A stretch of 62,572 bases of DNA from a virus (IMGVR_UViG_2671180890_000001), one strand, 5' to 3'. Counted from the stretch's first letter, positions 1-49,921 are shown. Notes: generated from the letters alone by a model not told the origin. A program made the numbers and translations.

Positions 1-1745
1 ACTGCAGCAAAAAACAGCCAGGTTGCAGCAGCCCAAAGCGAGAGCGCGGCAGCCGGTTCTGCGACTTCAGCAGCTGGATCAGCAACTGCTGCGGCTAACA
101 GCCAGAAAGCTGCGAAGACGAGTGAAACTAACGCAAAGTCCAGCCAGACGGCAGCGAAGACCAGCGAAACGAATGCCAAAGCCAGTGAAACTGCGGCGAA
201 AAGCAGTCAGGATGCAGCGGCCCAAAGCGAGAGTGCCGCAGCCAGTTCTGCAAGCGCGGCGGCTGCTTCTGCCACTGCATCAGCTAACAGTCAAAAAGCA
301 GCAAAAACCAGTGAAACCAACGCAAAGGTGAGCGAAACAGCGGCTGCGAACTCAGCGAAAGCATCGGCAGCAAGCCAGACGGCAGCTAAAGCAAGCGAAG
401 ATGCAGCCAGAGAGTACGCAAGCCAGGCTGCGGAGCCGTATAAATATGTCTTACAGCCGCTGCCTGATGTGTGGATACCATTTAACGATTCGCTGGATAT
501 GATTACGGGCTTTTCGCCATCATATAAAAAAATTGTTATTGGTGACGATGAAATAACGATGCCTGGCGACAAGATTGTTAAGTTTAAACGTGCATCGAAA
601 GCAACCTATATTAACAAATCTGGTGTGCTGACAGAGGCTGCCATTGACGAGCCACGATTTGAACGTGATGGTCTGCTTATTGAGGGGCAAAGAACAAACT
701 ACATGCTCAATTCGGAAAGCCCTGCCAGTTGGGGGCGATCGTCAAATATGGATGTGCCCGAAACAGGGACGGATAATTTTGGTTTTACCTATGGAAAGTT
801 TGTCTGCAACGATTCTCTGATTGGGCAAACCTCAGCCATTAATATGGCATCAATTGCTGCAACAAAGTCAGTTGATGTCTCAGGCGATAATAAATATGTG
901 ACAACCTCATGTCGTTTTAAAACAGAACTGCAGGTAAGGTTGCGTATCCGGTTTGATAAATATGACGTAGCGCAACAACTTTTCTTGGTGATGCGTATAT
1001 TGATACACAAAACGCTTGAAATTAATATGACAGGCGGTGCTGCCTCAAGGATTACAGCGAGAGTCAGAAAGGACGAAGCTACCGGATGGATTTTTGCAGA
1101 GGCAACAATTCAGGCAATTGATGGGGAGTTAAAAATAGGTTCTCAGATACAGTATTCTCCTAAGCAGGGCGGGCAACCGTATCTGGTGACTATATTTATC
1201 TGGCCACCCCACAAGTAGAAAATGGGCCTTGTGTATCATCTTTTATTATATCAGGAACGACGGCGGCGACCCGCGCAAGCGATATAGTTACAGTTCCCAT
1301 TAAGAATAATTTTTATAATCTTCCTTTTACGGTTCTTTGTGAGGTACATAAGAACTGGTATAAAACGCCAAATGCAGCGCCGCGTGTTTTTGATACCGGC
1401 GGTCATCAAACCGGAGCGGCTATTATTCTTGGCTTCGGTTCTTCAGCAGATTACGACGGATTTCCTTATTGCGATATTGGAGGAGCTAACAGACGGGTAA
1501 ACGAAAACGCATCGCTTGAAAAAATGGTTATGGGATGCGTGTAAAGTCAGATCAGTCTACGTGCTCAGTAAGTAACGGCGTATATCCAGCGAAACAAAAA
1601 CCACATGGTCCTGTATTCAGAACACCGCAATTATCCGTATTGGAGGCCAGACTACAGCCGGGTTACGTCATTTATTTGGTCATGTCAGGAATTTCAGAAT
1701 ATGGCACAAGGCATTGACTGATGCTCAGGTGGGGAGTCAATCTAA
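1..1745 (+). pseudogene. stf: Side tail fibre gene, C-terminal two thirds, fold-back copy broken by homopolymer frameshifts
   Basis: Frame 1 translation matches the 793 aa product of 10583..12964(-) except at GG>G and AAA>AAAA sites near 970-1010 and an indel near 1185. Confidence 0.75.
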
Positions 1746-2026
1746 TGAAAGATTTAACACTCAAATTTGCCGACAGGGCCGACTTTTCGGCCTTTATGGA
1801 GAGTATTGGCTATTATGATGACGAGTCGATGCAGGATGATATTCTTATTGACGTGATAGGTAACGTGTACAAAGAAACCGGAGAACTTACTGAAGATGGC
1901 GAGCCGGTATGTGTTAAGGAAGACGGATATTTTGTAAACGTGCGCATCATTAATGATGCAAAAAAATCGTCAATATTCGATGAATACGTGGTTGCTGTTG
2001 AGCATCAACTTCGTGGCTGGATGTGA
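1745..2026 (+). CDS. Hypothetical acidic 93 aa protein (fold-back copy of 10302..10583)
   Basis: Identical translation to 10302..10583(-). Confidence 0.5.
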   Translation: MKDLTLKFADRADFSAFMESIGYYDDESMQDDILIDVIGNVYKETGELTEDGEPVCVKEDGYFVNVRIINDAKKSSIFDEYVVAVEHQLRGWM

Positions 2027-2035
2027 GGAAGAAAA

Positions 2036-3076
2036 ATGGCTACATCGACAGTAATTCCTGAAGACATCAAAACGCTAAAATCCGACGTTAGCAAATTAAA
2101 AAACGATCAAGGAAGCTACGCAACAAAATCATATGTAGACAGCAAAGATGAAACCGTTGGTGACTGGTCTGCTTCATGGTATCAGCAGGTATTGCCAACT
2201 AGCGGAGCTATATTTGGGAGAAAACTCCGCTCAACTCACCGGACGGCAGGTGTTGAGGATGCGTATTGCGAACTATACCTCAAAAAATGGATAGACAGTC
2301 CAGGTAACGCAATGGCGCGCCTTAACCTGAACGATAACGGGACAAACATTTGCTGGGACTTTACCAACCTTTATGGCGGTACGATGATTTTTCCCGGTGA
2401 CAGCGGATACCTCAAAATGGGTAACTGCCTTATGTCATACAGCAAGCGTGGAAGTAACGCGCTTATTAAATTTGATTACACCGACACATTACAGATCAAA
2501 TATGCCAATCATGGGTCAACCATGACATTAAACACACAGGGAACCGCTTATGCTGGTGTTACTGCTCAATTGTGGGGCAACTCCAGCCGTCCTGTTGTTT
2601 ATGAAGTCGGTGTTGATGGTGGCGCTTATATGTTCTATGCGCAGAAAAATACCGATAACACCTATATGTTAAGCGTTAATGGTGCATGTCATGCCACCGC
2701 ATTTAACCAGCATTCCGACCGGGATCTGAAAGACAACATTCAGGTGATCGATAATGCAACCGACCGCATCCGTAAAATGAACGGCTATACATACACGCTT
2801 AAAGAAAACGGTATGCCCTATGCTGGTGTCATTGCACAGGAAGCTCTGGAAGCAATCCCAGAAGTTGTAGGTTCCGCAGTGAAATATCAGGACGGTGCAA
2901 GCGGATCGGAAGGTGAAGAAGGTGAACGTTATTACACAGTAGATTATTCTGGTATTACTGGCTTGCTTGTTCAGGTAGCCAGAGAGTCAGACGACAGAAT
3001 AACAGCACTGGAAGAAGAAAACGCAGAATTAAAACAAAGATTATCTGCAATTGAGGCGGCGCTTGCGTCTAAATAA
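2036..3076 (+). CDS. Tail fibre or receptor-binding protein with C-terminal S74-type intramolecular chaperone domain (fold-back copy of 9252..10292)
   Basis: Identical 346 aa translation. Confidence 0.65.
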   Translation: MATSTVIPEDIKTLKSDVSKLKNDQGSYATKSYVDSKDETVGDWSASWYQQVLPTSGAIFGRKLRSTHRTAGVEDAYCELYLKKWIDSPGNAMARLNLNDNGTNICWDFTNLYGGTMIFPGDSGYLKMGNCLMSYSKRGSNALIKFDYTDTLQIKYANHGSTMTLNTQGTAYAGVTAQLWGNSSRPVVYEVGVDGGAYMFYAQKNTDNTYMLSVNGACHATAFNQHSDRDLKDNIQVIDNATDRIRKMNGYTYTLKENGMPYAGVIAQEALEAIPEVVGSAVKYQDGASGSEGEEGERYYTVDYSGITGLLVQVARESDDRITALEEENAELKQRLSAIEAALASK

Positions 3077-3103
3077 TATTAAGGGGCCGAGCGCCCCGTT
3101 TTA

Positions 3104-3412
3104 TTGGGTGGGATGAAAATGGATATAACACCTTTCCTTCATGCACTTTGTGCTGTGGCTGCGCAGGTACTGGTTGGTCTTTTTACCGGAAACTGGGCTT
3201 ACGGAGCGATAGCCGGTTGTACGTTCTTCATTGCGCGTGAACACACCCAGGCAGAATATCGCTGGATTGAAATGTTCGGGCATGGCAAGCGGATTAACAT
3301 GCCGTGGTGGGGCGGTTTTGATCCGCGCGTGTGGGATGTGGCAAGCCTGATGGATTTTGCTGTGCCGGTGGTGGCGTGTCTGCTGGTCTGGCTGTTGGTT
3401 TATCGTGGGTGA
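3104..3412 (+). CDS. Small membrane protein (fold-back copy of 8916..9224)
   Basis: Identical 102 aa translation, hydrophobic segments. Confidence 0.45.
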   Translation: MGGMKMDITPFLHALCAVAAQVLVGLFTGNWAYGAIAGCTFFIAREHTQAEYRWIEMFGHGKRINMPWWGGFDPRVWDVASLMDFAVPVVACLLVWLLVYRG

Positions 3413-3574
3413 AAAAAGGTGAGCTGTATATGCAACGGAGGAAGAAACCCCGTTGCTGGAAGCCTGGAAAAAGTATCGGGTGTTGTTGAATCGTGTTGAT
3501 ACATCACTATCTCCAGATATCGAGTGGCCAAGTCAACCATAAATCAATATCCCCTGCAATGCAGGGGATATTTC

Positions 3575-4540
3575 TTAATTATCAGTAGATTGTTCCTCTA
3601 GTAACAACTCAATTCTGCTTAGTATTTCTTTAGATATTTTTCGGCTATCAATTTTTATAGTTACAAAATTACCTTTATATCTAGCCGTGATCCCTTCCCC
3701 ATATTTTTTCTCGTCTTTTGTTTTTTCCTCGTCGCCAACCAGAACAGAGTCAGATAATATTTGTATAATCCGTGAAGCTTCTAAATCCTCGCCGTTTTTT
3801 TTAATTGCCAGAAGATGATGAGCAGCATTGCTCATGGCAGCCATGTTTTTTTTGTAGACCTTAAACAAAGAATCTCCAGCACGAGCTGACAGTTCTCCTG
3901 GATGATTGAAGATAGCTAATATATCTTTTGGTAGACCAGCTGTATTAATACAGCGAGTGATAATATTTCTGTCTATATTTTCAGCCTCGGCTAATGCTTT
4001 AACGTTACCATCAAAGTCATTTAGCTTGCGTAAGTATCTCTTTCCTCTTTCGTATGCACTAATAGGCCTATAATCGTTACCAATTTGGGATAACCAATGC
4101 ATCTGTTCATCGTCGAGATCACCTATTAAGACGCGATAGTCACATCCTGTTAATATCGCTGCTTTTCTTCTACGTGAGCCGTCAGCGACTTCAACGATTC
4201 CAGACACTTTTCTGGCGAAAGCTGGATTTTGTTGTCCAGACGTTAGAAAAGATGGGATTAAATCGGCTAGAGAGGATTCATTTAATAAATCTTGATCGCG
4301 TTCATTACCTAGCCATACCATTGTTGCCATTTCAACTTTATCTGCGGGAATTGTCTCTAACTTAAAGTTAACATTACGTCCGCATACTGGCAAAGTTATG
4401 CTGTTACCGGTTAATGAACTCAGTTGACGTTTTAAATCACCAACCATAGGTGATACGGGCTGATGTTCAGGGGCATGATGATTATTACTCATAATGCGAT
4501 TAATATCTGGAGCATTTTTTAGAAGAGAGCGCTGTTTCAT
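3575..4540 (-). CDS. sopB: SopB/ParB partition protein (fold-back copy)
   Basis: Identical to 7788..8753(+). Confidence 0.85.
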   Translation of the reverse strand: MKQRSLLKNAPDINRIMSNNHHAPEHQPVSPMVGDLKRQLSSLTGNSITLPVCGRNVNFKLETIPADKVEMATMVWLGNERDQDLLNESSLADLIPSFLTSGQQNPAFARKVSGIVEVADGSRRRKAAILTGCDYRVLIGDLDDEQMHWLSQIGNDYRPISAYERGKRYLRKLNDFDGNVKALAEAENIDRNIITRCINTAGLPKDILAIFNHPGELSARAGDSLFKVYKKNMAAMSNAAHHLLAIKKNGEDLEASRIIQILSDSVLVGDEEKTKDEKKYGEGITARYKGNFVTIKIDSRKISKEILSRIELLLEEQSTDN

Positions 4541-5707
4541 TATTCGTTCTCCCAGCGAGGTTTTATTAGATCATCAAAAATTTCTCGGCAAACAGGGTCC
4601 CATATAGAAACAGCATTTCTCCATGCATTCAATGTTGAACGTTGGTTTGCTGCTTGTTCAAATACTGTTCTCATTTTTATCTGGCCTTTACCTACTTCAT
4701 CGGTAACGCGTACAACCTGACGTAATACCATTGATCCCCATGTATTTCTTATTTGTTCTTCCATCCATCGTGATTGATTCCCTGTAGTGAGACTATATTT
4801 AGTCAGAAGTAAGCGAACGGTTGGCTCAAATCCACCTAGGTCAACGCTTTCCAATAGATCGAGAAGCATTGTGAAAAAACTGTAGAACAGAAGCGTAATC
4901 AAATAATTCTGCAGGTGTAGCAACAACAATAACGTCAGCGGCACAAACAACGTTAATGGTTCCTGTACCGAGGTTCGGAGCACTATCTATAACGATAACA
5001 TCGTAGTTATCCCAAACTGATTCAATAGCTGCGCGCAGCATAAGGTGTGGAGGATGAGGCAATTTACCCTGAGCATGATATTGCATGAGATCTGTTTCTA
5101 TACGATGTAAAGCTAGGCAGCTAGGGATAATGTCTAGCCCAGGCCAACATGTTGGCTTTATAGCATATTCAGCGTTATCGCGTTCTCCTAAGTAAAATGG
5201 CAGTAAAGTATCCTCGGCATGGATATGTAAATCAGGAACATAACCGTGATACATAGAGGCCGTGCCTTGAGGATCGTTACCTTCAACCAAAAGAACACGA
5301 TGACCTTGTAATGCTAACCATTGAGCTTGATGTACCGCAGACGATGTTTTATAAACGCCGCCTTTGTGTGACATAACGGCAAGCACAACAGGGTTTTTAT
5401 CTTGTGGTCGTTGGTTTGGGTTGCCAAAAACTGCTCGCATACTGTTGATTTGATCTATGGTATAACCAGCACGACGTTCAATTCTTCCTCTCATTTCAAA
5501 GTCAGGTGCAGGTAAACGCCCGCTCTTCTCAGCATCTCTAATTGCTTGAGGAGTTACACCAATTAAATCTGCTACTTCAGTTATACCCCATCGGCGGGTG
5601 ATACGCCGAGCTTCAGGACTATCATCACCGAATTGAGCGATAGCAATTGCTTGGGTCATTTCTTGACCTCTCGTAACACAATCTTGCAATAACTTTTTCA
5701 AAGACAT
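4540..5707 (-). pseudogene. sopA: SopA/ParA partition ATPase, fold-back copy with a 1-nt homopolymer frameshift (A6 here versus T5 in the primary copy near 7450)
   Basis: ORFs 4841..5707 and 4540..4983 together reproduce the 388 aa SopA of 6622..7788 in two frames. Confidence 0.8.
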
Positions 5708-6143
5708 ACTGTCATCTCCAGCTTGTAACTTTGCTTAATAATTAAATCTTTGCTTATTTCTAGCAAATTTGCATGAAAAAGGCAAAGCAAAACGAAAAAC
5801 GCAAAGGTGAATATTTGAGCTAAATCATCTTTTGTTCCCCTCCCGAAATGCATAAAACGAACAACGATATAATCATAACTAATTGATATTTATTATCTTT
5901 TTTAAAGAAAGGAAATCATGTAAAACTAGGGAAACATGATAAGAATCATCAATGAGATACGTTTTCTCTATTAGTTCTCCCAATCTTACCAATACGAGAA
6001 CATAAACAGAGAACATAAAAATCAAGTAATGATACAAACACAATAAAGAACATAAATAAAGAATTAAAACCAATGCTAAATAAAGCAGTACATAATATGA
6101 GAACATTACACCAAATGAGAACATTAATCAAGAACACAACGAA

Positions 6144-6185
6144 ACATAATTCCCCATTATACGTGCGTATAATGGGGAATTATGT
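6144..6185. repeat. Left hairpin telomere (telL) read-through: 20 bp arms around a non-self-complementary TG centre at 6164-6165
   Basis: ACATAATTCCCCATTATACG-TG-CGTATAATGGGGAATTATGT; arms closely resemble the N15 telO palindrome. Confidence 0.85.
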
Positions 6186-6189
6186 TTCG

Positions 6190-6460
6190 TTGTGTTCTTG
6201 ATTAATGTTCTCATTTGGTGTAATGTTCTCATATTATGTACTGCTTTATTTAGCATTGGTTTTAATTCTTTATTTATGTTCTTTATTGTGTTTGTATCAT
6301 TACTTGATTTTTATGTTCTCTGTTTATGTTCTCGTATTGGTAAGATTGGGAGAACTAATAGAGAAAACGTATCTCATTGATGATTCTTATCATGTTTCCC
6401 TAGTTTTACATGATTTCCTTTCTTTAAAAAAGATAATAAATATCAATTAGTTATGATTAT
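6190..6460. promoter_or_regulatory. AT-rich iteron array (about 6 copies of TATGTTCTC-like motif) between telL and sopA; candidate sop promoter or protelomerase/partition protein binding region
   Basis: Repeated ATGTTCTC / GTTGTGTTCT motifs read directly; the predicted ORFs here are mirror-symmetric and low complexity. Confidence 0.35.
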
Positions 6461-6621
6461 ATCGTTGTTCGTTTTATGCATTTCGGGAGGGGAACAAAAG
6501 ATGATTTAGCTCAAATATTCACCTTTGCGTTTTTCGTTTTGCTTTGCCTTTTTCATGCAAATTTGCTAGAAATAAGCAAAGATTTAATTATTAAGCAAAG
6601 TTACAAGCTGGAGATGACAGT

Positions 6622-7788
6622 ATGTCTTTGAAAAAGTTATTGCAAGATTGTGTTACGAGAGGTCAAGAAATGACCCAAGCAATTGCTATCGCTCAATTCG
6701 GTGATGATAGTCCTGAAGCTCGGCGTATCACCCGCCGATGGGGTATAACTGAAGTAGCAGATTTAATTGGTGTAACTCCTCAAGCAATTAGAGATGCTGA
6801 GAAGAGCGGGCGTTTACCTGCACCTGACTTTGAAATGAGAGGAAGAATTGAACGTCGTGCTGGTTATACCATAGATCAAATCAACAGTATGCGAGCAGTT
6901 TTTGGCAACCCAAACCAACGACCACAAGATAAAAACCCTGTTGTGCTTGCCGTTATGTCACACAAAGGCGGCGTTTATAAAACATCGTCTGCGGTACATC
7001 AAGCTCAATGGTTAGCATTACAAGGTCATCGTGTTCTTTTGGTTGAAGGTAACGATCCTCAAGGCACGGCCTCTATGTATCACGGTTATGTTCCTGATTT
7101 ACATATCCATGCCGAGGATACTTTACTGCCATTTTACTTAGGAGAACGCGATAACGCTGAATATGCTATAAAGCCAACATGTTGGCCTGGGCTAGACATT
7201 ATCCCTAGCTGCCTAGCTTTACATCGTATAGAAACAGATCTCATGCAATATCATGCTCAGGGTAAATTGCCTCATCCTCCACACCTTATGCTGCGCGCAG
7301 CTATTGAATCAGTTTGGGATAACTACGATGTTATCGTTATAGATAGTGCTCCGAACCTCGGTACAGGAACCATTAACGTTGTTTGTGCCGCTGACGTTAT
7401 TGTTGTTGCTACACCTGCAGAATTATTTGATTACGCTTCTGTTCTACAGTTTTTCACAATGCTTCTCGATCTATTGGAAAGCGTTGACCTAGGTGGATTT
7501 GAGCCAACCGTTCGCTTACTTCTGACTAAATATAGTCTCACTACAGGGAATCAATCACGATGGATGGAAGAACAAATAAGAAATACATGGGGATCAATGG
7601 TATTACGTCAGGTTGTACGCGTTACCGATGAAGTAGGTAAAGGCCAGATAAAAATGAGAACAGTATTTGAACAAGCAGCAAACCAACGTTCAACATTGAA
7701 TGCATGGAGAAATGCTGTTTCTATATGGGACCCTGTTTGCCGAGAAATTTTTGATGATCTAATAAAACCTCGCTGGGAGAACGAATAA
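6622..7788 (+). CDS. sopA: SopA/ParA partition ATPase, F-plasmid SopA type
   Basis: 388 aa; Walker-type KGGVYKTS motif; near full-length resemblance to F SopA (from memory). Confidence 0.95.
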   Translation: MSLKKLLQDCVTRGQEMTQAIAIAQFGDDSPEARRITRRWGITEVADLIGVTPQAIRDAEKSGRLPAPDFEMRGRIERRAGYTIDQINSMRAVFGNPNQRPQDKNPVVLAVMSHKGGVYKTSSAVHQAQWLALQGHRVLLVEGNDPQGTASMYHGYVPDLHIHAEDTLLPFYLGERDNAEYAIKPTCWPGLDIIPSCLALHRIETDLMQYHAQGKLPHPPHLMLRAAIESVWDNYDVIVIDSAPNLGTGTINVVCAADVIVVATPAELFDYASVLQFFTMLLDLLESVDLGGFEPTVRLLLTKYSLTTGNQSRWMEEQIRNTWGSMVLRQVVRVTDEVGKGQIKMRTVFEQAANQRSTLNAWRNAVSIWDPVCREIFDDLIKPRWENE

Positions 7789-8753
7789 TGAAACAGCGCT
7801 CTCTTCTAAAAAATGCTCCAGATATTAATCGCATTATGAGTAATAATCATCATGCCCCTGAACATCAGCCCGTATCACCTATGGTTGGTGATTTAAAACG
7901 TCAACTGAGTTCATTAACCGGTAACAGCATAACTTTGCCAGTATGCGGACGTAATGTTAACTTTAAGTTAGAGACAATTCCCGCAGATAAAGTTGAAATG
8001 GCAACAATGGTATGGCTAGGTAATGAACGCGATCAAGATTTATTAAATGAATCCTCTCTAGCCGATTTAATCCCATCTTTTCTAACGTCTGGACAACAAA
8101 ATCCAGCTTTCGCCAGAAAAGTGTCTGGAATCGTTGAAGTCGCTGACGGCTCACGTAGAAGAAAAGCAGCGATATTAACAGGATGTGACTATCGCGTCTT
8201 AATAGGTGATCTCGACGATGAACAGATGCATTGGTTATCCCAAATTGGTAACGATTATAGGCCTATTAGTGCATACGAAAGAGGAAAGAGATACTTACGC
8301 AAGCTAAATGACTTTGATGGTAACGTTAAAGCATTAGCCGAGGCTGAAAATATAGACAGAAATATTATCACTCGCTGTATTAATACAGCTGGTCTACCAA
8401 AAGATATATTAGCTATCTTCAATCATCCAGGAGAACTGTCAGCTCGTGCTGGAGATTCTTTGTTTAAGGTCTACAAAAAAAACATGGCTGCCATGAGCAA
8501 TGCTGCTCATCATCTTCTGGCAATTAAAAAAAACGGCGAGGATTTAGAAGCTTCACGGATTATACAAATATTATCTGACTCTGTTCTGGTTGGCGACGAG
8601 GAAAAAACAAAAGACGAGAAAAAATATGGGGAAGGGATCACGGCTAGATATAAAGGTAATTTTGTAACTATAAAAATTGATAGCCGAAAAATATCTAAAG
8701 AAATACTAAGCAGAATTGAGTTGTTACTAGAGGAACAATCTACTGATAATTAA
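7788..8753 (+). CDS. sopB: SopB/ParB centromere-binding protein
   Basis: 321 aa; ParB motif GSRRRKAA; start overlaps sopA stop (TAATGA). Confidence 0.9.
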   Translation: MKQRSLLKNAPDINRIMSNNHHAPEHQPVSPMVGDLKRQLSSLTGNSITLPVCGRNVNFKLETIPADKVEMATMVWLGNERDQDLLNESSLADLIPSFLTSGQQNPAFARKVSGIVEVADGSRRRKAAILTGCDYRVLIGDLDDEQMHWLSQIGNDYRPISAYERGKRYLRKLNDFDGNVKALAEAENIDRNIITRCINTAGLPKDILAIFNHPGELSARAGDSLFKVYKKNMAAMSNAAHHLLAIKKNGEDLEASRIIQILSDSVLVGDEEKTKDEKKYGEGITARYKGNFVTIKIDSRKISKEILSRIELLLEEQSTDN

Positions 8754-8754
8754 G

Positions 8755-8783
8755 AAATATCCCCTGCATTGCAGGGGATATTG
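8755..8783. terminator. Bidirectional hairpin terminator after sopB
   Basis: Perfect inverted repeat ATATCCCCTGC-A-TTGCAGGGGATAT. Confidence 0.5.
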
Positions 8784-8915
8784 ATTTATGGTTGACTTGG
8801 CCACTCGATATCTGGAGATAGTGATGTATCAACACGATTCAACAACACCCGATACTTTTTCCAGGCTTCCAGCAACGGGGTTTCTTCCTCCGTTGCATAT
8901 ACAGCTCACCTTTTT

Positions 8916-9224
8916 TCACCCACGATAAACCAACAGCCAGACCAGCAGACACGCCACCACCGGCACAGCAAAATCCATCAGGCTTGCCACATCCCACACG
9001 CGCGGATCAAAACCGCCCCACCACGGCATGTTAATCCGCTTGCCATGCCCGAACATTTCAATCCAGCGATATTCTGCCTGGGTGTGTTCACGCGCAATGA
9101 AGAACGTACAACCGGCTATCGCTCCGTAAGCCCAGTTTCCGGTAAAAAGACCAACCAGTACCTGCGCAGCCACAGCACAAAGTGCATGAAGGAAAGGTGT
9201 TATATCCATTTTCATCCCACCCAA
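8916..9224 (-). CDS. Small integral membrane protein, function unknown
   Basis: 102 aa ORF with hydrophobic segments; start uncertain. Confidence 0.45.
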   Translation of the reverse strand: MGGMKMDITPFLHALCAVAAQVLVGLFTGNWAYGAIAGCTFFIAREHTQAEYRWIEMFGHGKRINMPWWGGFDPRVWDVASLMDFAVPVVACLLVWLLVYRG

Positions 9225-9251
9225 TAAAACGGGGCGCTCGGCCCCTTAATA

Positions 9252-10292
9252 TTATTTAGACGCAAGCGCCGCCTCAATTGCAGATAATCTTTGTTTTAAT
9301 TCTGCGTTTTCTTCTTCCAGTGCTGTTATTCTGTCGTCTGACTCTCTGGCTACCTGAACAAGCAAGCCAGTAATACCAGAATAATCTACTGTGTAATAAC
9401 GTTCACCTTCTTCACCTTCCGATCCGCTTGCACCGTCCTGATATTTCACTGCGGAACCTACAACTTCTGGGATTGCTTCCAGAGCTTCCTGTGCAATGAC
9501 ACCAGCATAGGGCATACCGTTTTCTTTAAGCGTGTATGTATAGCCGTTCATTTTACGGATGCGGTCGGTTGCATTATCGATCACCTGAATGTTGTCTTTC
9601 AGATCCCGGTCGGAATGCTGGTTAAATGCGGTGGCATGACATGCACCATTAACGCTTAACATATAGGTGTTATCGGTATTTTTCTGCGCATAGAACATAT
9701 AAGCGCCACCATCAACACCGACTTCATAAACAACAGGACGGCTGGAGTTGCCCCACAATTGAGCAGTAACACCAGCATAAGCGGTTCCCTGTGTGTTTAA
9801 TGTCATGGTTGACCCATGATTGGCATATTTGATCTGTAATGTGTCGGTGTAATCAAATTTAATAAGCGCGTTACTTCCACGCTTGCTGTATGACATAAGG
9901 CAGTTACCCATTTTGAGGTATCCGCTGTCACCGGGAAAAATCATCGTACCGCCATAAAGGTTGGTAAAGTCCCAGCAAATGTTTGTCCCGTTATCGTTCA
10001 GGTTAAGGCGCGCCATTGCGTTACCTGGACTGTCTATCCATTTTTTGAGGTATAGTTCGCAATACGCATCCTCAACACCTGCCGTCCGGTGAGTTGAGCG
10101 GAGTTTTCTCCCAAATATAGCTCCGCTAGTTGGCAATACCTGCTGATACCATGAAGCAGACCAGTCACCAACGGTTTCATCTTTGCTGTCTACATATGAT
10201 TTTGTTGCGTAGCTTCCTTGATCGTTTTTTAATTTGCTAACGTCGGATTTTAGCGTTTTGATGTCTTCAGGAATTACTGTCGATGTAGCCAT
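9252..10292 (-). CDS. Second tail fibre or receptor-binding protein with C-terminal peptidase S74-type intramolecular chaperone domain
   Basis: 346 aa; C-terminal SDRDLKDNI ... YTVDYSGITGLLVQ ... coiled-coil tail typical of auto-cleaving fibre chaperone domains. Confidence 0.7.
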   Translation of the reverse strand: MATSTVIPEDIKTLKSDVSKLKNDQGSYATKSYVDSKDETVGDWSASWYQQVLPTSGAIFGRKLRSTHRTAGVEDAYCELYLKKWIDSPGNAMARLNLNDNGTNICWDFTNLYGGTMIFPGDSGYLKMGNCLMSYSKRGSNALIKFDYTDTLQIKYANHGSTMTLNTQGTAYAGVTAQLWGNSSRPVVYEVGVDGGAYMFYAQKNTDNTYMLSVNGACHATAFNQHSDRDLKDNIQVIDNATDRIRKMNGYTYTLKENGMPYAGVIAQEALEAIPEVVGSAVKYQDGASGSEGEEGERYYTVDYSGITGLLVQVARESDDRITALEEENAELKQRLSAIEAALASK

Positions 10293-10301
10293 TTTTCTTC
10301 C

Positions 10302-10583
10302 TCACATCCAGCCACGAAGTTGATGCTCAACAGCAACCACGTATTCATCGAATATTGACGATTTTTTTGCATCATTAATGATGCGCACGTTTACAAAATA
10401 TCCGTCTTCCTTAACACATACCGGCTCGCCATCTTCAGTAAGTTCTCCGGTTTCTTTGTACACGTTACCTATCACGTCAATAAGAATATCATCCTGCATC
10501 GACTCGTCATCATAATAGCCAATACTCTCCATAAAGGCCGAAAAGTCGGCCCTGTCGGCAAATTTGAGTGTTAAATCTTTCAT
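10302..10583 (-). CDS. Hypothetical acidic protein between the two fibre genes
   Basis: 93 aa ORF; start overlaps stf stop. Confidence 0.5.
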   Translation of the reverse strand: MKDLTLKFADRADFSAFMESIGYYDDESMQDDILIDVIGNVYKETGELTEDGEPVCVKEDGYFVNVRIINDAKKSSIFDEYVVAVEHQLRGWM

Positions 10584-12964
10584 TAGATTGACTCCCCCAC
10601 CTGAGCATCAGTCAATGCCTTGTGCCATATTCTGAAATTCCTGACATGACCAAATAAATGACGTAACCCGGCTGTAGTCTGGCCTCCAATACGGATAATT
10701 GCGGTGTTCTGAATACAGGACCATGTGGTTTTTGTTTCGCTGGATATACGCCCGTTACTTACTGAGCACGTAGACTGATCTGACTTTACACGCATCCCCA
10801 TAACCATTTTTTCAAGCGATGCGTTTTCGTTTACCCGTCTGTTAGCTCCTCCAATATCGCAATAAGGAAATCCGTCGTAATCTGCTGAAGAACCGAAGCC
10901 AAGAATAATAGCCGCTCCGGTTTGATGACCGCCGGTATCAAAAACACGCGGCGCTGCATTTGGCGTTTTATACCAGTTCTTATGTACCTCACAAAGAACC
11001 GTAAAAGGAAGATTATAAAAATTATTCTTAATGGGAACTGTAACTATATCGCTTGCGCGGGTCGCCGCCGTCGTTCCTGATATAATAAAAGATGATACAC
11101 AAGGCCCATTTTCTACTTGTGGGGTGGCCAGATAAATATAGTCACCAGATACGGTTGCCCCGCCCTGCTTAGGAGAATACTGTATCTGAGAACCTATTTT
11201 TAACTCCCCATCAATTGCCTGAATTGTTGCCTCTGCAAAAATCCATCCGGTAGCTTCGTCCTTTCTGACTCTCGCTGTAATCCTTGAGGCAGCACCGCCT
11301 GTCATATTAATTTCAAGCGTTTGTGTATCAATATACGCATCACCAAGAAAAGTTGTTGCGCTACCGTCATATTTATCAAACCGGATACGCAACCTTACCT
11401 GCAGTTCTGTTTTAAAACGACATGAGGTTGTCACATATTTATTATCGCCTGAGACATCAACTGACTTTGTTGCAGCAATTGATGCCATATTAATGGCTGA
11501 GGTTTGCCCAATCAGAGAATCGTTGCAGACAAACTTTCCATAGGTAAAACCAAAATTATCCGTCCCTGTTTCGGGCACATCCATATTTGACGATCGCCCC
11601 CAACTGGCAGGGCTTTCCGAATTGAGCATGTAGTTTGTTCTTTGCCCCTCAATAAGCAGACCATCACGTTCAAATCGTGGCTCGTCAATGGCAGCCTCTG
11701 TCAGCACACCAGATTTGTTAATATAGGTTGCTTTCGATGCACGTTTAAACTTAACAATCTTGTCGCCAGGCATCGTTATTTCATCGTCACCAATAACAAT
11801 TTTTTTATATGATGGCGAAAAGCCCGTAATCATATCCAGCGAATCGTTAAATGGTATCCACACATCAGGCAGCGGCTGTAAGACATATTTATACGGCTCC
11901 GCAGCCTGGCTTGCGTACTCTCTGGCTGCATCTTCGCTTGCTTTAGCTGCCGTCTGGCTTGCTGCCGATGCTTTCGCTGAGTTCGCAGCCGCTGTTTCGC
12001 TCACCTTTGCGTTGGTTTCACTGGTTTTTGCTGCTTTTTGACTGTTAGCTGATGCAGTGGCAGAAGCAGCCGCCGCGCTTGCAGAACTGGCTGCGGCACT
12101 CTCGCTTTGGGCCGCTGCATCCTGACTGCTTTTCGCCGCAGTTTCACTGGCTTTGGCATTCGTTTCGCTGGTCTTCGCTGCCGTCTGGCTGGACTTTGCG
12201 TTAGTTTCACTCGTCTTCGCAGCTTTCTGGCTGTTAGCCGCAGCAGTTGCTGATCCAGCTGCTGAAGTCGCAGAACCGGCTGCCGCGCTCTCGCTTTGGG
12301 CTGCTGCAACCTGGCTGTTTTTTGCTGCAGTTTCACTGGCTTTAGCATTCGTTTCGCTGGTCTTCGCTGCCGTCTGGCTGGACTTTGCGTTGGTTTCGCT
12401 CGTCTTTGCGGCTGTCTCGCTATTTTTCGCGTTGGTTTCTGATTTTTTAGCTGCTGTCGCGGAGTTTGCCGATGCAGTCTGTGAGGTCGCTGCCGCCTGT
12501 GCGCTGTTAGCTGCATTCGTTTCTGAGGTTTTCGCCGCGTTCTTCGATGATGCCGCTGCAGTTTCGGATTTCTTTGCCGCCGCTGCGCTCTGAGAAGCGG
12601 CTTCGGCGTTGCGTGCCGCTTCTTCCACCATTTCCTGAAAACGGCGCAATGCCTCCGGCATGACATCATCTTCCGTCATGGCACCGAGAAAATCATTCAG
12701 CGTACCTGGTCTGGAGCCTTCATAGACGGTAATGGTCCCGGCATGTGAAGGCGGAAAACCTTCAACCAGCAGGGTGACGCTGTACTGGCCATACTCAACA
12801 TCCATGCTGTAACGCCCGGCTTCATCAGGATTTTCAGAGGCCACCGTGTTCACCAGTACCGTGGTGCTGTTACGCTTTGCCTTCAGTTGAATAGTGCAGT
12901 TCTGTATTGGTTTTCCCGCACCATCTTTCAGCACACCTGAGATTTTTACTGCTGCCATATCCAC
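10583..12964 (-). CDS. stf: Side tail fibre protein: lambda Stf-like N-terminus, Ala/Ser-rich tandem repeats, divergent C-terminal domain
   Basis: 793 aa; N-terminal KISGVLKDG...SHAGTITVYE as in lambda Stf; repeats of KTSETNAKxSxTAA. Confidence 0.85.
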   Translation of the reverse strand: MDMAAVKISGVLKDGAGKPIQNCTIQLKAKRNSTTVLVNTVASENPDEAGRYSMDVEYGQYSVTLLVEGFPPSHAGTITVYEGSRPGTLNDFLGAMTEDDVMPEALRRFQEMVEEAARNAEAASQSAAAAKKSETAAASSKNAAKTSETNAANSAQAAATSQTASANSATAAKKSETNAKNSETAAKTSETNAKSSQTAAKTSETNAKASETAAKNSQVAAAQSESAAAGSATSAAGSATAAANSQKAAKTSETNAKSSQTAAKTSETNAKASETAAKSSQDAAAQSESAAASSASAAAASATASANSQKAAKTSETNAKVSETAAANSAKASAASQTAAKASEDAAREYASQAAEPYKYVLQPLPDVWIPFNDSLDMITGFSPSYKKIVIGDDEITMPGDKIVKFKRASKATYINKSGVLTEAAIDEPRFERDGLLIEGQRTNYMLNSESPASWGRSSNMDVPETGTDNFGFTYGKFVCNDSLIGQTSAINMASIAATKSVDVSGDNKYVTTSCRFKTELQVRLRIRFDKYDGSATTFLGDAYIDTQTLEINMTGGAASRITARVRKDEATGWIFAEATIQAIDGELKIGSQIQYSPKQGGATVSGDYIYLATPQVENGPCVSSFIISGTTAATRASDIVTVPIKNNFYNLPFTVLCEVHKNWYKTPNAAPRVFDTGGHQTGAAIILGFGSSADYDGFPYCDIGGANRRVNENASLEKMVMGMRVKSDQSTCSVSNGRISSETKTTWSCIQNTAIIRIGGQTTAGLRHLFGHVRNFRIWHKALTDAQVGESI

Positions 12965-12967
12965 TCC

Positions 12968-13000
12968 ACAAAAAAGCCCGCCTGAACCGGCGGGCTGTCA
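12968..13000 (-). terminator. Rho-independent terminator downstream of lom
   Basis: GCCCGCC/GGCGGGC stem followed by a T-run on the minus strand. Confidence 0.5.
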
Positions 13001-13022: not shown

Positions 13023-13622
13023 TCAGAATTTATAACCGACACCCACGATGAAACCGTCAGTGCGCCAGTCACCACTGCCGGAGCCTTCATAAGCAATATC
13101 AATGGCCACGGATTCGGTCGGGTTAAACTGCACGCCAGCCCCCCACGCCAGAGACGTGTTGCTGTGGCGACCGTCATCACTTCCGGTCAGCACATCGTGC
13201 GTTTTCCCCTTGCTGTCAGTTACGCGGAGATAATCCCCGGAAAAAGTCGAAACACGGCTGTAAGCCACACCTGCCATCGCATAAGCACTGAACCATTCAT
13301 TCACGCGTACAGACGGCCCCGCCATCATGCTGAACCAGCGGTTACGCACTGAATCTTCATGCCAGCGGGTATCGCTGTAATGCGTTTTTTGCTCATCTTT
13401 GGCATTGGCATAACTGAATGACGTCACCAGCCCCAGCGTGTCCGTAAATTCATAACGGTATTTCACGTTAATGCCCTTCAGGTCATCGTTGCCGGGCATA
13501 TCAGTATGGGTCTGAAGATACCCGGCGCTTAGTGTGGACTGATGCTCTGCTGCGCTCGCTGGCGTACCAGCGGCGACCAGCCAGACTACTGTGGACAGAA
13601 TAACAGCACATAATTTACGCAT
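13023..13622 (-). CDS. lom: Lom-family outer membrane protein (Ail/Lom)
   Basis: 199 aa; signal peptide; C-terminal AYEGSGSGDWRTDGFIVGVGYKF as in lambda Lom. Confidence 0.85.
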   Translation of the reverse strand: MRKLCAVILSTVVWLVAAGTPASAAEHQSTLSAGYLQTHTDMPGNDDLKGINVKYRYEFTDTLGLVTSFSYANAKDEQKTHYSDTRWHEDSVRNRWFSMMAGPSVRVNEWFSAYAMAGVAYSRVSTFSGDYLRVTDSKGKTHDVLTGSDDGRHSNTSLAWGAGVQFNPTESVAIDIAYEGSGSGDWRTDGFIVGVGYKF

Positions 13623-13689: not shown

Positions 13690-16600
13690 TCAGCTGATAC
13701 TGATGCCTGCAGTGGCTTTCTTCATCACAACAACCAGCAAATCGCTGATACTTGCTGTGGGATACCAGCCATTTACCCACCATGCTGATACAGAAAACTC
13801 CAGTGTCATTACGCCACTGCCTGCAGGCATATCAATAACACCCGTGTAAATCAGAGTATTATCCAGAGCCGTTCGGTTATAAATTTCAGCCCCGTTTTTC
13901 TTCACTATCAGGCGGCATGACGAATAAGTATCGCTATTCTCCCGTTCATGTCTGGCACCGCTGAAAGCCACCGCTGGAATAACAATTTGCCGGTCAAACG
14001 GCTGATCGTCATAAACCCTGACGGTAATGGTCCCTGATGGCCACCGCTCCGGTGCACGGGAGTCCCGGGGGAAAGCTTTGCCCACTGTTTTAACGAGATC
14101 GCCTTCAATCTGGTTCGCGGACAGTTTTCCCAGAACCCGACAGTTCTCGTTAATCGTGACGTTGTTGAGCGTCCCGGAGTTCGCATTCACGCTACCGCTG
14201 ATATCGGCATTTTTCGCCGTCAGCCGCCCGTCCGGTGTCAGGGAAAATGCCGGAGGATTACCGCCGCTGGTAATGGTGGGAGCCGTCAGATATTTCAGGA
14301 ACACTTCATTCATGAATATCTGGTTGCCCTGCGCCACAAACATCGGCGTTTCATTCCCGTTTGCCGGGTCAATAAACGCGATACGGTTAGCGGCAACCAG
14401 GAACTGACTCAGTTTGCCTTCCTCCGTATCCTCCATGCTGAGGCCAAGCCCCGCGACATAATGTTTGCCGTCTTTGGTCTGCTCAATTTTGACGCCCCAC
14501 ATGGCATTCCATTTATCGTTGGCATCTTTCCACTCTTTCGAAAACTCATCCAGTCTGCTGGCGTTATCCTCCGTCAGGTCGACTTTTTCCAGCAGCTCCT
14601 TGCCGAGATGGGATTCGGTTATCTGGCCTTTGAAAAAATCCAGGTAACCTTCTGCATCATCGCTCGCCCGACCGACAGCCTCCACGAATGCCGATTTGCC
14701 AACGGTGTTCACACTGCGGATGTAAAAATAATAATCATGGCCCGGCTTGATATTGATACTGGCGGCTATCCAGTACAGCGCCGTACCAAGATAACGTGCG
14801 CTGGTTTCAACCTGCCTGATATCCGTAATCCGCTTTTCCGAGAACCAGAACTCAAACTGTACCGTCGGATCATAAACGGCAAGATGCGGCGTTGCGGTTA
14901 TCTGAAAATAGCCCGGCGTCAGCTCAATCCGCGACGGTGCTGCCGGTGCGGCAATCCGGAACGATACCGACGCCGGATCTCCCTGCTGCCCCCACGCATT
15001 TACCGCCCGGACTGTCAGCCTGTAGTTCCCCAGCGCCAGTTGCGTGAAGCGGTATGTGGTTTCCGTCGTCCGGGCCGTGCTGACCAGCCGCTCACTGCCG
15101 TCGTCCGCTGTTACGGTCAGACGGAGCAGGAAGCTCACGCCCTTCACCACCTTCGGTGTGTCCCATCGCGCCAGCACCTGATATTCCCCGCTGTCTGCAG
15201 TGACTTCTGCGGTCAGGTGCTGCACCGCTGGCGGCGTGACACCGTTCACCGTGCCACTCTGTTCGCCGTCAAAGTGCGCCCCGTTATCCACGATGGCCTC
15301 TTTTTCCGGCACATGCTGCACGGCGGTGATGGCATACGTGCCGTCGTCGTTCTCACGGATACTCACGCAGCGGAACAGTCGCTGGCGCAGCGTCGGCAGC
15401 TTCAGCCCCCATACGCTGTATTCAGCAACACCGTCAGGAACACGGCTCACTTTTACCTTCACGCCGTCGGTGACGGACTGAACCTCCACGCTGACCGGAT
15501 TGCCACTTCCGTCAACCAGGCTTATCAGCGTGGTACCGGAGGATGGCAGCGTGATTTCACGGTCGAGCGTCAGCGTCCGGGTCTGGCTGTTCACCGCCAG
15601 CACACGACCACCGGTGCTGATACCGGCATAGTCATCATCACAGATTTCAATAACATCGCCCGGTACATGGCGAAGCCCTTCTGCGCCGACGCTGAAATCC
15701 ACGGTCTGCGTTTCCAGCAGTTCTGTTTTAATCAGCCACAGCCCGGCGCGGTGTGCCTGCCCCCGGCTGGTACAGCCAAAGGCGTCCATCTTCGTGACGT
15801 TACGACCGTAACGGAGAATGGCCTGCGTATCTTCAACAAGCTCTGTCGCCGTCTCCCAGCCGTTGTTCGGGTCAATCCAGTTCACCTCAACGGCATTATG
15901 GCGGTCCTTCAGGGCGCTGAAACTGTAGCGGAACGGCGCGCCATCATCCGGCATCACCACATTACTGCGGTTATAGGTCCACACCTTATCCGACGGCCGG
16001 TCCTGCACGAACGTCAGCGTCTGCCCGTTCCATACCGGCATACAGCGCATCGCCGAGCAGAAATCACTGAGCACATCCCACGCCTTGCGCTGTGTGGTCA
16101 GGTAAGCGTTACAGGTGATGCGCGGCTCCGTGCCGCCAAAGCCGTCCGGCACCGACTGGTCGCAGTACTGGCCGATGACATACAGCGCCCATTTATCCAC
16201 ATCCGCCGCACCAAGACGTTTCCCCATGCCGTAGCGCGGATGGGTCAGCATATCCCACAGACACCAGGCCATGTTGTTGCTGTATGCCGGTTTAAACGTC
16301 CCGTCCCAGATACCGCTGTATTGCCGCGTCTGCGGGTTATAGTTCGACGGCACCTGCAGAATGCGCCCGCGAAGATGATAATTACGGCTCACCTGCTGGC
16401 TGCCGAACTGCTCCGAATCCACCTGTACGCCGACCAGTGCCGTGTTCGGGTAGCCCTGTTTCACATCGATGATTTCGGTGTATGACGACCAGAGCGTTTT
16501 GTTCTGCAGCTGGTCTGTGGTGCTGTCCGGCGTCATCCTGCGCATCCGGATATTAAACGGGCGCGGCGGCAGGTTATCCACCACCACCGAGGCCAGATAC

Positions 16601-17085
16601 TGCGAGGTGGTTTTGCCCTTAATGGTGATGTCTTTTTCTGTCACCCAGCCACCGTTACGCTGTATCTGAACCAGCAGGCGGACTTCCGATGGATTCCTGT
16701 CCCCCTTTGAGGTGGTTTCCACCAGTGCCTGCACACCGAAGGTAAAGCGCAGACGGTCGATGTTTGCCGACGTGATGGTCCGGGTGATCGGCGTGTCATA
16801 TTTCACTTCCGTACCCAGCACCGTCTCGGAACCGGAGGATTCAAATCCCTCCGGCGGTGTCTGCTCCTGCTCACCTGCCCGGAACACCACCGTGACACCG
16901 GAGATGTTGGTATTCCCCTCACTGTCCAGCACCGGTGTACTGTTCAGCAGCACGCTTTTTAATCCATCCACCGGACCTTCAATCGGCCCTTCGCTGATGG
17001 CATCGATCACACTCAGTAACTGCGTGGATTTCAGGTTATCCTTCGCTTCGCGCGGGGTATGCCCCTTACTGCTGCCTTTACCCAT
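13690..17085 (-). CDS. J: Tail tip / host specificity protein J with a non-lambda C-terminal receptor-binding region
   Basis: 1131 aa; lambda J-like from [19 protein letters not shown] through about residue 980, then divergent last ~150 aa. Confidence 0.95.
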
Positions 17086-32600: not shown

Positions 32601-32685
32601 CGCCGGAAAGGACCCGCAAAGATGAGAATAATTATTACTTGCATTAATATCCGGCTTCTTCCACCATCGCACCGGACGGGCGACT

Positions 32686-32830
32686 ATGAGGGACAAAACC
32701 GCGCACCATAAACGCGGTAAAAACCCGGTGTGCATCGTTTTTGATTATTCCCGCACACTCGCGCAGAAGGAGTTCCCCGTCGGGCTACGGTCATGGTTAA
32801 TGCGGGAATACAGCGACGATACAGCGCATG
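32686..32830. repeat. Direct repeat copy 1 (about 145 bp, ~90 percent identical to 34472..34620), flanking the AT-rich moron
   Basis: Shared core GCGGTAAAAACCCGGTGTGCATCGTTTTTGATTATT...GAGTTCCCCGTCGGGCTACGGTCATGGTTAATGCGG. Confidence 0.7.
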
Positions 32831-34418: not shown

Positions 34419-34471
34419 CGCTCCTGAATACATGCCCTGTTTCTTCCACCCTCGCACAGGACTGGCGAGCA

Positions 34472-34620
34472 TGAGGGACAAACCCGCGAATCATTAGCGC
34501 GGTAAAAACCCGGTGTGCATCGTTTTTGATTATTTCCGCACACTCGCGCAGAGGAGTTCCCCGTCGGGCTACGGTCATGGTTAATGCGGAAATACGGCGA
34601 CGATGCAGCGCGGTATTTAA
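34472..34620. repeat. Direct repeat copy 2 (pairs with 32686..32830)
   Basis: See copy 1. Confidence 0.7.
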
Positions 34621-48919: not shown

Positions 48920-49103
48920 TCAGTGGATATTATCTTTGTGTCTCTTGCTTTGTGTGTTCCAGCAATGGTTTTGGTTCATAGATCGAAAGTCTCACAAGGA
49001 AAACATGAAGGCCAGGAAGGCGATGTTTCGTGGTGAACAACTCGCGCAGACTTATCGTATGTGGAAACGTTTCTATCGTGATTTTTCGGTGAACGGGGAG
49101 TAA
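48912..49103 (+). CDS. Hypothetical small membrane protein
   Basis: Internal Met MGNQWILSLCLLLC; overlaps repA stop. Confidence 0.4.
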   Translation: MGNQWILSLCLLLCVFQQWFWFIDRKSHKENMKARKAMFRGEQLAQTYRMWKRFYRDFSVNGE

Positions 49104-49107
49104 AAAT

Positions 49108-49434
49108 ATGTCTACTACTGCATTTTTGGACAAACTTGATTACCGTCAGCTGCAGTTTTGCCGGGATGAATGCGATCGACGCATTAAGGCTATCCAGGAG
49201 GAAGAAAAAAAGGTTGCCTGGGCTGTAACAGATCGTGGCCTTATCTTTGGCTGGTTCCGTACGGAGGATTATCTGAAAGCAGTGGAATTATTGGCGCGTG
49301 AGGCTGCTGAGCGTTGGGAACGAGCCGACAAGGAAAACCCGGAGACGAAGTATGAACTGAATCTCTACATCGAGGGCAACCGTCTACCATTGTCAGAGTA
49401 TAACGCTTTGTTTGCTGATGGTGAGTGGGGTTAA
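49108..49434 (+). CDS. Hypothetical protein
   Basis: 108 aa ORF. Confidence 0.5.
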   Translation: MSTTAFLDKLDYRQLQFCRDECDRRIKAIQEEEKKVAWAVTDRGLIFGWFRTEDYLKAVELLAREAAERWERADKENPETKYELNLYIEGNRLPLSEYNALFADGEWG

Positions 49435-49832
49435 AAATGGCTGTTCAATCATACAAATACGAATCCCCTTTGGATAAGGGATACATTCGTATCAAGTTAA
49501 GTCGTTCTCAACATAAGGCTATTTTTAAGGTAAGGAAAATTCGCATATTGGATGCGTATGCGTATTACTACAACGGTGAAAATGTTGTTGTTGAACACTT
49601 TCTTGCACGATGGTTTGTAGCTCTGATTTTTGTCCCTCTCCTGTTAATTGGTACTTTTGTGGATGGTTTTCCTAGTACATGGCGGGAGATAAAGAAAGGC
49701 CTATTCCCGCGTAAGTACGGCAGATTTTCGCAAGATAGCTGGCGAGTTATACCTGGTAAACATTCTGTGGATGAGCAGCCGATTGTTGATTACTGGTTGA
49801 AGCGTATGGCTGATGCTAAAAAAGTTGATTGA
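49425..49832 (+). CDS. Hypothetical membrane protein
   Basis: 135 aa ORF with a central hydrophobic segment. Confidence 0.5.
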   Translation: MGLKMAVQSYKYESPLDKGYIRIKLSRSQHKAIFKVRKIRILDAYAYYYNGENVVVEHFLARWFVALIFVPLLLIGTFVDGFPSTWREIKKGLFPRKYGRFSQDSWRVIPGKHSVDEQPIVDYWLKRMADAKKVD

Positions 49833-49921
49833 ATAGTGATGACTGTTCAAGTTAAACCGTTCTCGGCATATTTTATTTAATGGAATAACATATTATTAAT
49901 CAAATAGGTTAAGTTAATATT

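Follow-up and report, generated by a model that had tools for sequence, protein, structure and literature searches.

Which O-antigen or capsule types a siphovirus gets past depends on its side or lateral tail fibres. In the T5-like phages DT57C and DT571/2, whose lateral fibres are branched, the second of the fibre proteins LtfA and LtfB is carried by the first, S74 chaperones are used, and genetics revealed two O-antigen specificities, with receptor-binding parts in both proteins (PMC4728585, PMC10713586). In IrisVonRoten (Bas32), AlphaFold-Multimer models place the distal 'T-shaped' fibre Gp24 on the proximal fibre Gp22, the C-terminus of which was described as a 'galectin-like' extra receptor-binding domain, and the paper is silent on the small protein Gp23 (PMC11990801). 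Here, we analyzed a fibre locus at positions 8,916 to 12,964 of a viral sequence of 62,572 nucleotides (IMGVR_UViG_2671180890_000001; this whole stretch is called the window), which judging from its genes is an N15-type linear phage-plasmid with lambda-like tail genes. The locus contains the same three genes as Gp22-Gp23-Gp24 of IrisVonRoten, in the same order and with the same stop/start overlap. With a probability of roughly two in three, we read it as encoding a side tail fibre of composite build, with two receptor-binding units that both diversify, in which a trimer of a 346-amino-acid (aa) protein would be docked on a unit made up of the C-terminal half of the side tail fibre protein Stf and a 93-aa protein. 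The arrangement is common, widespread in E. coli phages and already annotated, and a T5-like phage has provided a model of its architecture (PMC11990801). For the window, the result is mainly one of annotation, in that an N15-type phage-plasmid appears to have exchanged a lambda stf tip plus tfa for this cassette; the points of interest are the proposed roles of the conserved 93-aa protein and of an N-terminal docking peptide. The features of the locus are the following.

10583..12958, minus strand: side tail fibre gene stf; 791 aa if translated from the ATG at 12958 (the open reading frame is longest from the GTG at 12964)
12563..12952, minus strand: N-terminal lambda-type anchor domain of Stf, aa 5-134 (PF08400 phage_tail_N)
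11909..12619, minus strand: Ala/Ser/Thr-rich repeat shaft of Stf, aa ~116-352 (composition and tandem repeats)
11024..11755, minus strand: Stf domain, aa ~404-647, with homology to the head-spike fibre of the Rhodobacter capsulatus gene transfer agent, RcGTA (NCBIfam and profile match)
10586..11017, minus strand: C-terminal domain of Stf, aa ~650-793, with a LamG/ConA-like end …RHLFGHVRNFRIWHKALTDAQ (Laminin_G_3, sub-threshold)
10302..10583, minus strand: 93-aa acidic protein, phrog_1361 (open reading frame)
9252..10292, minus strand: 346-aa short fibre or distal receptor-binding protein (phrog_4563 'tail fiber protein', aligned end to end)
10218..10292, minus strand: N-terminal aa 1-25 of the 346-aa protein, conserved motif MATSTVIPEDIKTLKSDVSKLKND with a proposed docking role (IMG/VR loci)
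9963..10187, minus strand: segment aa 36-110 of the 346-aa protein, hypervariable and a candidate for the receptor-binding surface (allele comparison)
9255..9614, minus strand: S74 intramolecular chaperone domain of the 346-aa protein, aa 227-346 (PF13884)
8916..9209, minus strand: hydrophobic membrane protein, phrog_1443, 97 aa (102 aa from an upstream TTG, 8916-9224)
8789..8896, minus strand, mirrored at 3432-3539, plus strand: remnant of a lambda-type tfa, C-terminal 36 aa (tblastn with lambda Tfa)

The likeness to IrisVonRoten extends over all three proteins. In BLASTP, Gp22 was 52% identical to Stf over 744 aa (E 0), with 63% identity between the C-terminal halves (alignment A5), and Gp23 was 38% identical to the 93-aa protein (tblastn, E 9e-17). 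Gp24 starts with MVTKTVIPTDITKLKN and ends in an S74 chaperone, just as the 346-aa protein ends. The two systems differ in their anchors, as Gp22 is attached through a T5-type N-terminus and the LtfC collar and Stf has the lambda phage_tail_N domain; they also differ in the size of the third protein, which comprises 574 aa with two large receptor-binding domains in IrisVonRoten and 346 aa in the window, and the IrisVonRoten module lacks the membrane-protein gene. DT57C differs in its composition: it has neither a Stf-type C-terminal lectin domain nor the 93-aa protein, its LtfA ends in an S74 domain and the Stf of the window does not, and its LtfB begins with a phiEco32 gp15-like sequence (MSRPLMPKSGAM…) that is unrelated to the MATSTVIP motif described below. 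With lambda Stf/Tfa, the Stf of the window has in common the anchor domain, the Ala/Ser repeats, and the position after J and lom, and it differs by the missing orf-314 homology, by a tfa reduced to a 36-aa remnant, and by a lectin-type tip with extra proteins.

The lambda-like N-terminus of Stf, which a first-pass annotation made from the DNA alone had pointed out, was confirmed: phage_tail_N matched with E 4.4e-66, PDB 9e7m 'Tail fiber protein' (a solved chain of 94 residues) with E 7.5e-49, and aa 2-305 are 58.6% identical to lambda orf-401. Phrog_1419 'tail protein' aligned end to end with Stf. As comparisons with lambda and with the annotated 791-aa coding sequence of phage 2G7b agree on it, the ATG at 12958 is likely the true start; stf is 97.6% identical to that of 2G7b at the nucleotide level. 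The Ala/Ser-rich tandem repeats that had also been described follow the anchor. Among the 237 residues of aa 116-352, 87 are Ala and 46 are Ser (56% together), and Tandem Repeats Finder detected 2.2 copies of a 189-nucleotide (nt) unit at 12005-12421 with sub-periods of 42 and 21 nt, which indicates heptads in the shaft. On account of this 7-residue period and of the helical bundle of DT57C LtfA (PMC10713586), the shaft probably forms a coiled coil of three chains.

The C-terminal half of Stf is not of the lambda type, as had been noted before: tblastn with orf-314, the distal half of the lambda fibre, gave no match to Stf, and a Pfam search gave no Peptidase_S74 match to Stf either. Within this half, aa 437-637 matched the NCBIfam model NF048003 GTA_spike_fiber with 49.8 bits (cut-off 36), and a profile of ten diverse family members (A5) matched Rcc01080 (GhsB), the head-spike fibre of RcGTA (PDB 6tb9), with E 1.6e-16. 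The homologous domain of GhsB is located on the capsid vertex, whereas its counterpart in Stf lies at the end of a tail fibre and is followed by a LamG-like domain. Polysaccharide binding is known for the GTA head-spike protein only. The LamG-like assignment came from the Pfam model Laminin_G_3, which covered the last ~50 residues of the Stf of the window with 17.1 bits (cut-off 27.6) and was also found below threshold in all 10 family members, on the same C-terminal strands and with a best E of 1.1e-5.

This C-terminal half varies between alleles in blocks. Its neck (…LQPLPDVWIPFNDSLDM…EPRFERDGLLIEGQRTN) and its extreme C-terminal end are conserved, and the two blocks between them range from ~20 to 100% identity and recombine independently of each other, the first being common to phage 21 and the second to ev243. 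The RcGTA-like domain itself is hypervariable, with 20-100% identity between alleles. Conserved ends that enclose independently varying blocks are the pattern expected of receptor-binding domains.

The 346-aa protein contains the second region of this kind. Its segment aa 36-110 is only 30-40% identical between alleles, with flanks of 95-100% identity and sharp bounds, and it overlaps the beta-strand region aa 58-118 of an AlphaFold2 model, where block means of the predicted local distance difference test (pLDDT) are ~67-84. Judged from the alleles, the localised hypervariability of both Stf and the 346-aa protein is typical of receptor-binding parts, and the dual receptor-binding proteins suggested by the first-pass annotation are a reasonable interpretation of it.

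The last third of the 346-aa protein proved to be the S74 intramolecular chaperone that had been suspected there. In hidden Markov model searches, this domain scored above cut-off as did the spike-fibre domain of Stf, with Peptidase_S74 (PF13884) covering aa 227-278 at 53 bits (cut-off 22, E 4.4e-14). Ser227 and Lys232 of the S227-D-R-D-L-K232 motif are conserved in at least 90% of 37 homologues, and the S16 gp37 chaperone 6f45 matched with E 5e-4, its SDRRIK being aligned to SDRDLK. In alignments of known self-cleaving chaperone domains, Ser and Lys are likewise five residues apart (PMC4728585). The chaperones of K1F endosialidase, T5 pb1, and S16 gp37 share with the 346-aa protein the PF13884 domain, the S-x-x-x-x-K pair, and a C-terminal helix, which in the AlphaFold2 model is a single long helix formed by residues 304-344. 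The sequence thereby lends good support to maturation with an intramolecular chaperone instead of Tfa. Self-cleavage is predicted to occur before Ser227 and would yield products of 24.9 kDa (residues 1-226) and 13.1 kDa. The mature part would have only 226 aa and no enzymatic domain, in which it differs from those systems, and cleavage is a prediction here; a reading of the S74 protein as a depolymerase or tailspike was rejected for lack of an enzymatic domain and for the size of the mature part. The AlphaFold2 monomer, which was calculated with an alignment of 37 sequences (pLDDT 61, predicted template modelling score 0.32), was used for secondary structure only, and a Foldseek search of the PDB with it gave no match at E <= 0.001. 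Residues 132-342 of the protein also match the C-termini of fibres of 1210-1567 aa.

The stf and 346-aa genes are separated by the gene of the 93-aa protein, the ATG of which overlaps the TAA stop of stf as TAATG. The protein is acidic, in line with its earlier description (pI 4.19; 21 Asp and Glu versus 9 Lys and Arg). It had no match in Pfam, NCBIfam, or PADLOC. AlphaFold2 predicted a small beta-alpha-alpha-beta4-alpha domain (pLDDT 87.5), for which a structural search gave no informative neighbour, and a family profile found nothing among the PDB sequences. With phmmer, 52 small stand-alone relatives or clusters were recovered from 1.84 billion representatives; three long matches turned out to be short, repeated, and of low complexity, so that no credible Rosetta-stone fusion of the domain to either neighbour was found in this set. 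Homologues are present in 186 phage records. In every case that we inspected, namely in lambdoids, the T1-like tunus, the Dhillonvirus KarlBarth, the T5-like IrisVonRoten and T5_ev219, and the rV5-like myovirus JeffSchatz, the homologue overlaps the stop of a fibre gene with the same C-terminal half, and homologues directly follow such fibre C-termini in Nonagvirus as well.

The 93-aa homologues were also found in records named 'Campylobacter phage' (MG065635, MG065652-55, MG065666, MG065676, MG065692) and 'Listeria phage' (OR847733, OR848352). Among those labelled 'Campylobacter', several are 99-100% identical to rV5-like coliphages, and both the Campylobacter and the Listeria label seem questionable as host assignments.

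What the 93-aa protein does can be narrowed down by the company it keeps. Phage 21, ev243, and JeffSchatz contain the Stf C-terminal half and the small protein without the third gene. Adapting the third protein can thus not be the only role of the 93-aa protein and, on this distribution, its primary partner must be the C-terminal half of Stf. This invariable pairing with such fibre C-termini, together with the small size and acidity of the protein and the tfa-like gene position and start/stop overlap as in lambda, fits a non-structural, Tfa-like assembly chaperone for the C-terminal domains of Stf, in which case the 346-aa protein would dock on Stf itself. We regard this as quite possible, if somewhat short of even odds. 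Tfa-type chaperones vary to match their partners, and this is at odds with a 93-aa protein that remains 92-100% identical across loci whose two neighbours vary and whose Stf C-terminal halves, the very domains to be folded, range from 40 to 100%. PDB profile and structure searches, moreover, gave no sequence or fold similarity to known fibre chaperones, and globular lectin-type domains are not known to need a chaperone.

The same constancy fits a structural joint with a role like that of T4 gp35/gp36; the protein would then cap the C-terminal unit of Stf and provide the socket for interchangeable distal fibres. The gene order would be proximal fibre, joint, and distal fibre; the 93-aa protein is the most conserved element between two independently recombining variable cassettes, and the start of the third gene, which adjoins the 93-aa gene, is conserved as well. 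The retention of the 93-aa protein in lineages that lack the third gene argues against a joint, as do the absence of fusions and of any structural neighbour among the known fibre joints, and we hold this interpretation as a tentative one only. A more specific version, according to which the 93-aa protein is a universal joint that caps the proximal lectin end and acts as the socket for the MATSTVIP…LK peptide, is rather doubtful at present. If it were true, S74-matured distal units would be exchangeable among lambdoid, N15-like, T1-like, Dhillonvirus, Nonagvirus, and T5-like phages.

That the third protein is held on the Stf/93-aa unit is suggested by its N-terminus. In a set of 80 IMG/VR prophage loci, 79 of which could be assessed beyond the 93-aa gene, the third gene started with MATSTVIPxDIxTLK in all 79, irrespective of whether it encoded 346 aa (37 loci) or 234 aa (42 loci). 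The 234-aa form (L010:5292-5996 and 41 other loci) combines the shared N-terminal peptide with a coiled coil and an S74 domain; its tip is very short, and its predicted mature chain has only ~115 aa. Both forms combine freely with Stf C-terminal alleles of 40-100% identity. Across phages, the start conforms to M-A/V-T-x-T-V-I-P-x-D-I-x-x-L-K, as exemplified by tunus (MATVTVIPSDITKLKN), KarlBarth (MVTKTNIPADITALKN), and IrisVonRoten and T5_ev219, which share the start given above for Gp24. An S74 domain was detected in IrisVonRoten Gp24, in tunus gp83, and in the 234-aa prophage form.

The phages with a third gene have unrelated tail tips, and all they have in common at this locus is the Stf C-terminal half and the 93-aa protein, which is why the partner of the conserved N-terminal peptide should be sought in that unit. 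DT57C, with a closely related T5-like tail that lacks both, uses an unrelated LtfB N-terminus, in agreement with docking on the Stf C-terminal/93-aa unit. The 346-aa protein could alternatively be an independent short fibre that is attached to the tail tip, i.e., to J or baseplate-like proteins. Its gene is after all a separate one that begins 9 nt past the stop of the 93-aa gene, with a ribosome-binding spacing of its own, and many phages have long and short fibres that are separate (PMC11990801). However, its N-terminal motif recurs in phages with unrelated tail tips (lambda-like, T1-like, T5-like, and Dhillonvirus) and always right after the pair of Stf C-terminal half and 93-aa protein, and DT57C, which has a similar tail without this pair, has a different N-terminus; we therefore consider an independent fibre improbable. 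The observations and the reading of the first-pass annotation are supported as a whole, and its 'second short fibre' needs refining in this respect: an S74 fibre protein is present, but co-occurrence argues that the C-terminal half of Stf and the 93-aa protein probably carry it as a distal or branch unit.

The composite fibre that we favour would then be built as follows. Stf would be anchored at the tail tip through its lambda-type N-terminal domain, extend by the heptad-repeat Ala/Ser shaft, and end in lectin-type globular domains, first the RcGTA-spike-like and then the LamG-like one. This tip would be the first receptor-binding unit and is probably directed at a glycan. The translationally coupled 93-aa protein would be an obligate partner of the Stf C-terminal unit, acting either as an assembly factor or as a small structural cap or joint. 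The 346-aa protein would trimerise with the aid of its C-terminal S74 chaperone, which would then cut itself off before Ser227 and leave a mature chain of ~25 kDa. Within the virion, this chain would be held on the Stf C-terminal half/93-aa unit by its conserved N-terminal 20-25 residues, the putative docking segment within aa 1-25, and it would represent a second, independently exchangeable receptor-binding unit with a ligand of its own. The whole cassette may have replaced the lambda-type stf tip plus tfa through recombination.

Several points weigh against this architecture. The LamG assignment of the Stf end falls below threshold, the monomer model of the 346-aa protein is poor (pLDDT 61), and its fold search gave only a resemblance to T4 gp34 with a low template modelling (TM) score (prob 0.94, TM 0.16). 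The 93-aa domain shows no Rosetta-stone fusion to either neighbour among the 1.84 billion representatives, and phage 21, ev243, and JeffSchatz keep the small protein without the third gene. The contacts between the cassette proteins were inferred from comparisons of sequences and gene neighbourhoods. Finally, the conserved junction, which runs from the Stf end through the 93-aa gene to the beginning of the third gene, could be a linker for recombination rather than an interface.

The cassette is not restricted to phage-plasmids. Over its full length, the locus shows 97-98% identity to its counterparts in the lambdoid phages 2G7b, Tritos, HannyBb, and PhiR63_1, all of which form plaques. For Nonagvirus ESCO3, which forms plaques too, the identity is 95% and extends over the C-terminal half of stf and the 93-aa and S74 genes. 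The three-gene order was also found in the T1-like Drexlerviridae phage tunus, in the T5-like IrisVonRoten and T5_ev219, and in the Dhillonvirus KarlBarth. The cassette ranks with the most frequent ones of E. coli prophages, one 90% cluster alone containing 2132 sequences of the 346-aa protein. If the conserved junction is a standard socket, this would explain the independent shuffling of two receptor-binding units across very different phages, and it would offer a ready-made route for mounting new receptor-binding proteins on lambda-based delivery particles. No use of this cassette was found in the Eligo lambda-STF engineering papers, which show only that the S74-bearing K1F spike works when fused to lambda Stf.

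Two phages have additional or altered genes at the third position. In ESCO3 (L002:1295-2005), a further 236-aa Gly-rich, Cys-tailed protein that starts with MSDMTLIPG is encoded after the S74 gene. In KarlBarth (L088:4270-5149), the third position is split between two proteins, one of 98 aa that bears the docking motif and a Phage_tail_C_2 protein of 196 aa.

No lambda-type tfa had been recognized by the first-pass annotation, and this holds for an intact gene, as tblastn with lambda Tfa found none in the window. The same search nevertheless revealed the 36-aa remnant, which is 83% identical to aa 156-191 of lambda Tfa (E 6e-15) and adjoins parB directly downstream of the cassette. At the equivalent site, sister phage-plasmids of E. 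coli and E. albertii have the cassette, an intact tfa, or other genes. The remnant and the variable content of this site point to a replacement of cassettes by recombination, and as far as can be judged from these comparisons the tfa remnant is the scar of such an exchange. Between stf and sopB, the sister N15-like phage-plasmids CP056845, CP088745, and NZ_CP117561 have differing cargo, which includes a macro-domain protein, a protein annotated as EspS, or an intact tfa. In phage 2G7b, small fragments annotated as 'tail fiber assembly protein' are located downstream of the cassette, past a methyltransferase gene.

The small membrane protein that the first-pass annotation placed at the end of the locus is indeed present. 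Its grand average of hydropathy is 0.56, and the homologue of phage 21 is annotated with 2 transmembrane segments. Searches of Pfam, NCBIfam, PADLOC, and the PDB gave no match. With 97 aa, the gene probably spans 8916-9209, as the PHROG alignment begins at residue 6 (aa 6-101) and the shorter start is therefore preferred. It is confined to lambdoid versions of the cassette. A consensus scan detected a GC-rich, terminator-like hairpin between the 346-aa and the membrane-protein genes (9231..9245, minus strand). By the same type of scan, a terminator-like hairpin was found between lom and stf (12975..12996, minus strand), where phage 21 has an annotated terminator at the equivalent place.

The element was identified as an N15-like phage-plasmid by its protelomerase, replication protein, and SopA/SopB genes. 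All four fibre-locus genes are co-oriented on the minus strand, downstream of J and lom. The relevant features outside the locus, and the differences between the two arms of the left palindrome described below, are the following.

54738-56633, plus strand, and 52460-54355, minus strand: TelK/TelN-type protelomerase with all four Pfam domains
44924-48919: replication protein of the primase/helicase type, 1331 aa
6622-8753: SopA/SopB partition genes
13690-17085: J, upstream of the fibre genes
13023-13622: lom, between J and stf
7450, 10594, 10751, 10796, 11158, 11320, and 11364, versus their mirror positions: indels that distinguish the arms

The window is reverse-complement symmetric in two stretches, from 1 to 12331 (99.87% self-complementary) and from 46940 to 62151 (99.96%), with palindrome centres at ~6166 and ~54546 on CCCATTATACG(TG/CA)CGTATAATGGG. 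The last 421 bases (62152-62572) are the reverse complement of 12332-12754 and extend the first palindrome; the unique, unduplicated portion is ~12755-46939. The palindrome centre, CCCATTATACG-NN-CGTATAATGGG, is what we take to be the telomere, in view of the core of N15 telO. The sequence looks like a hairpin-ended linear plasmid prophage that was assembled through both telomeres. Because of the assembly through a hairpin telomere, the fibre locus occurs twice, with the mirror copy at 1-3416 plus 62152-62572.

Apart from the 7 single-base indels, the two arms of the left palindrome are the same; the indels frameshift the mirrored parA (4540-5707) and the mirrored stf and probably are read or assembly errors, not biology. 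These frameshifts in one assembly arm, and the tfa remnant as the mark of a past rearrangement, could be taken to mean that the cassette is decaying prophage cargo without function in this element. Yet the genes are intact in the 6166-12754 arm, including all four open reading frames of the locus, the 7 indels are typical of read errors, the catalytic residues are conserved, and the locus is nearly identical to that of the plaque-forming phages named above, which makes decay very improbable.

Outside the fibre region, a direct repeat of 172 bp with 91% identity (32656-32827 and 34441-34611) is located between the head genes and the lysis/regulatory part.

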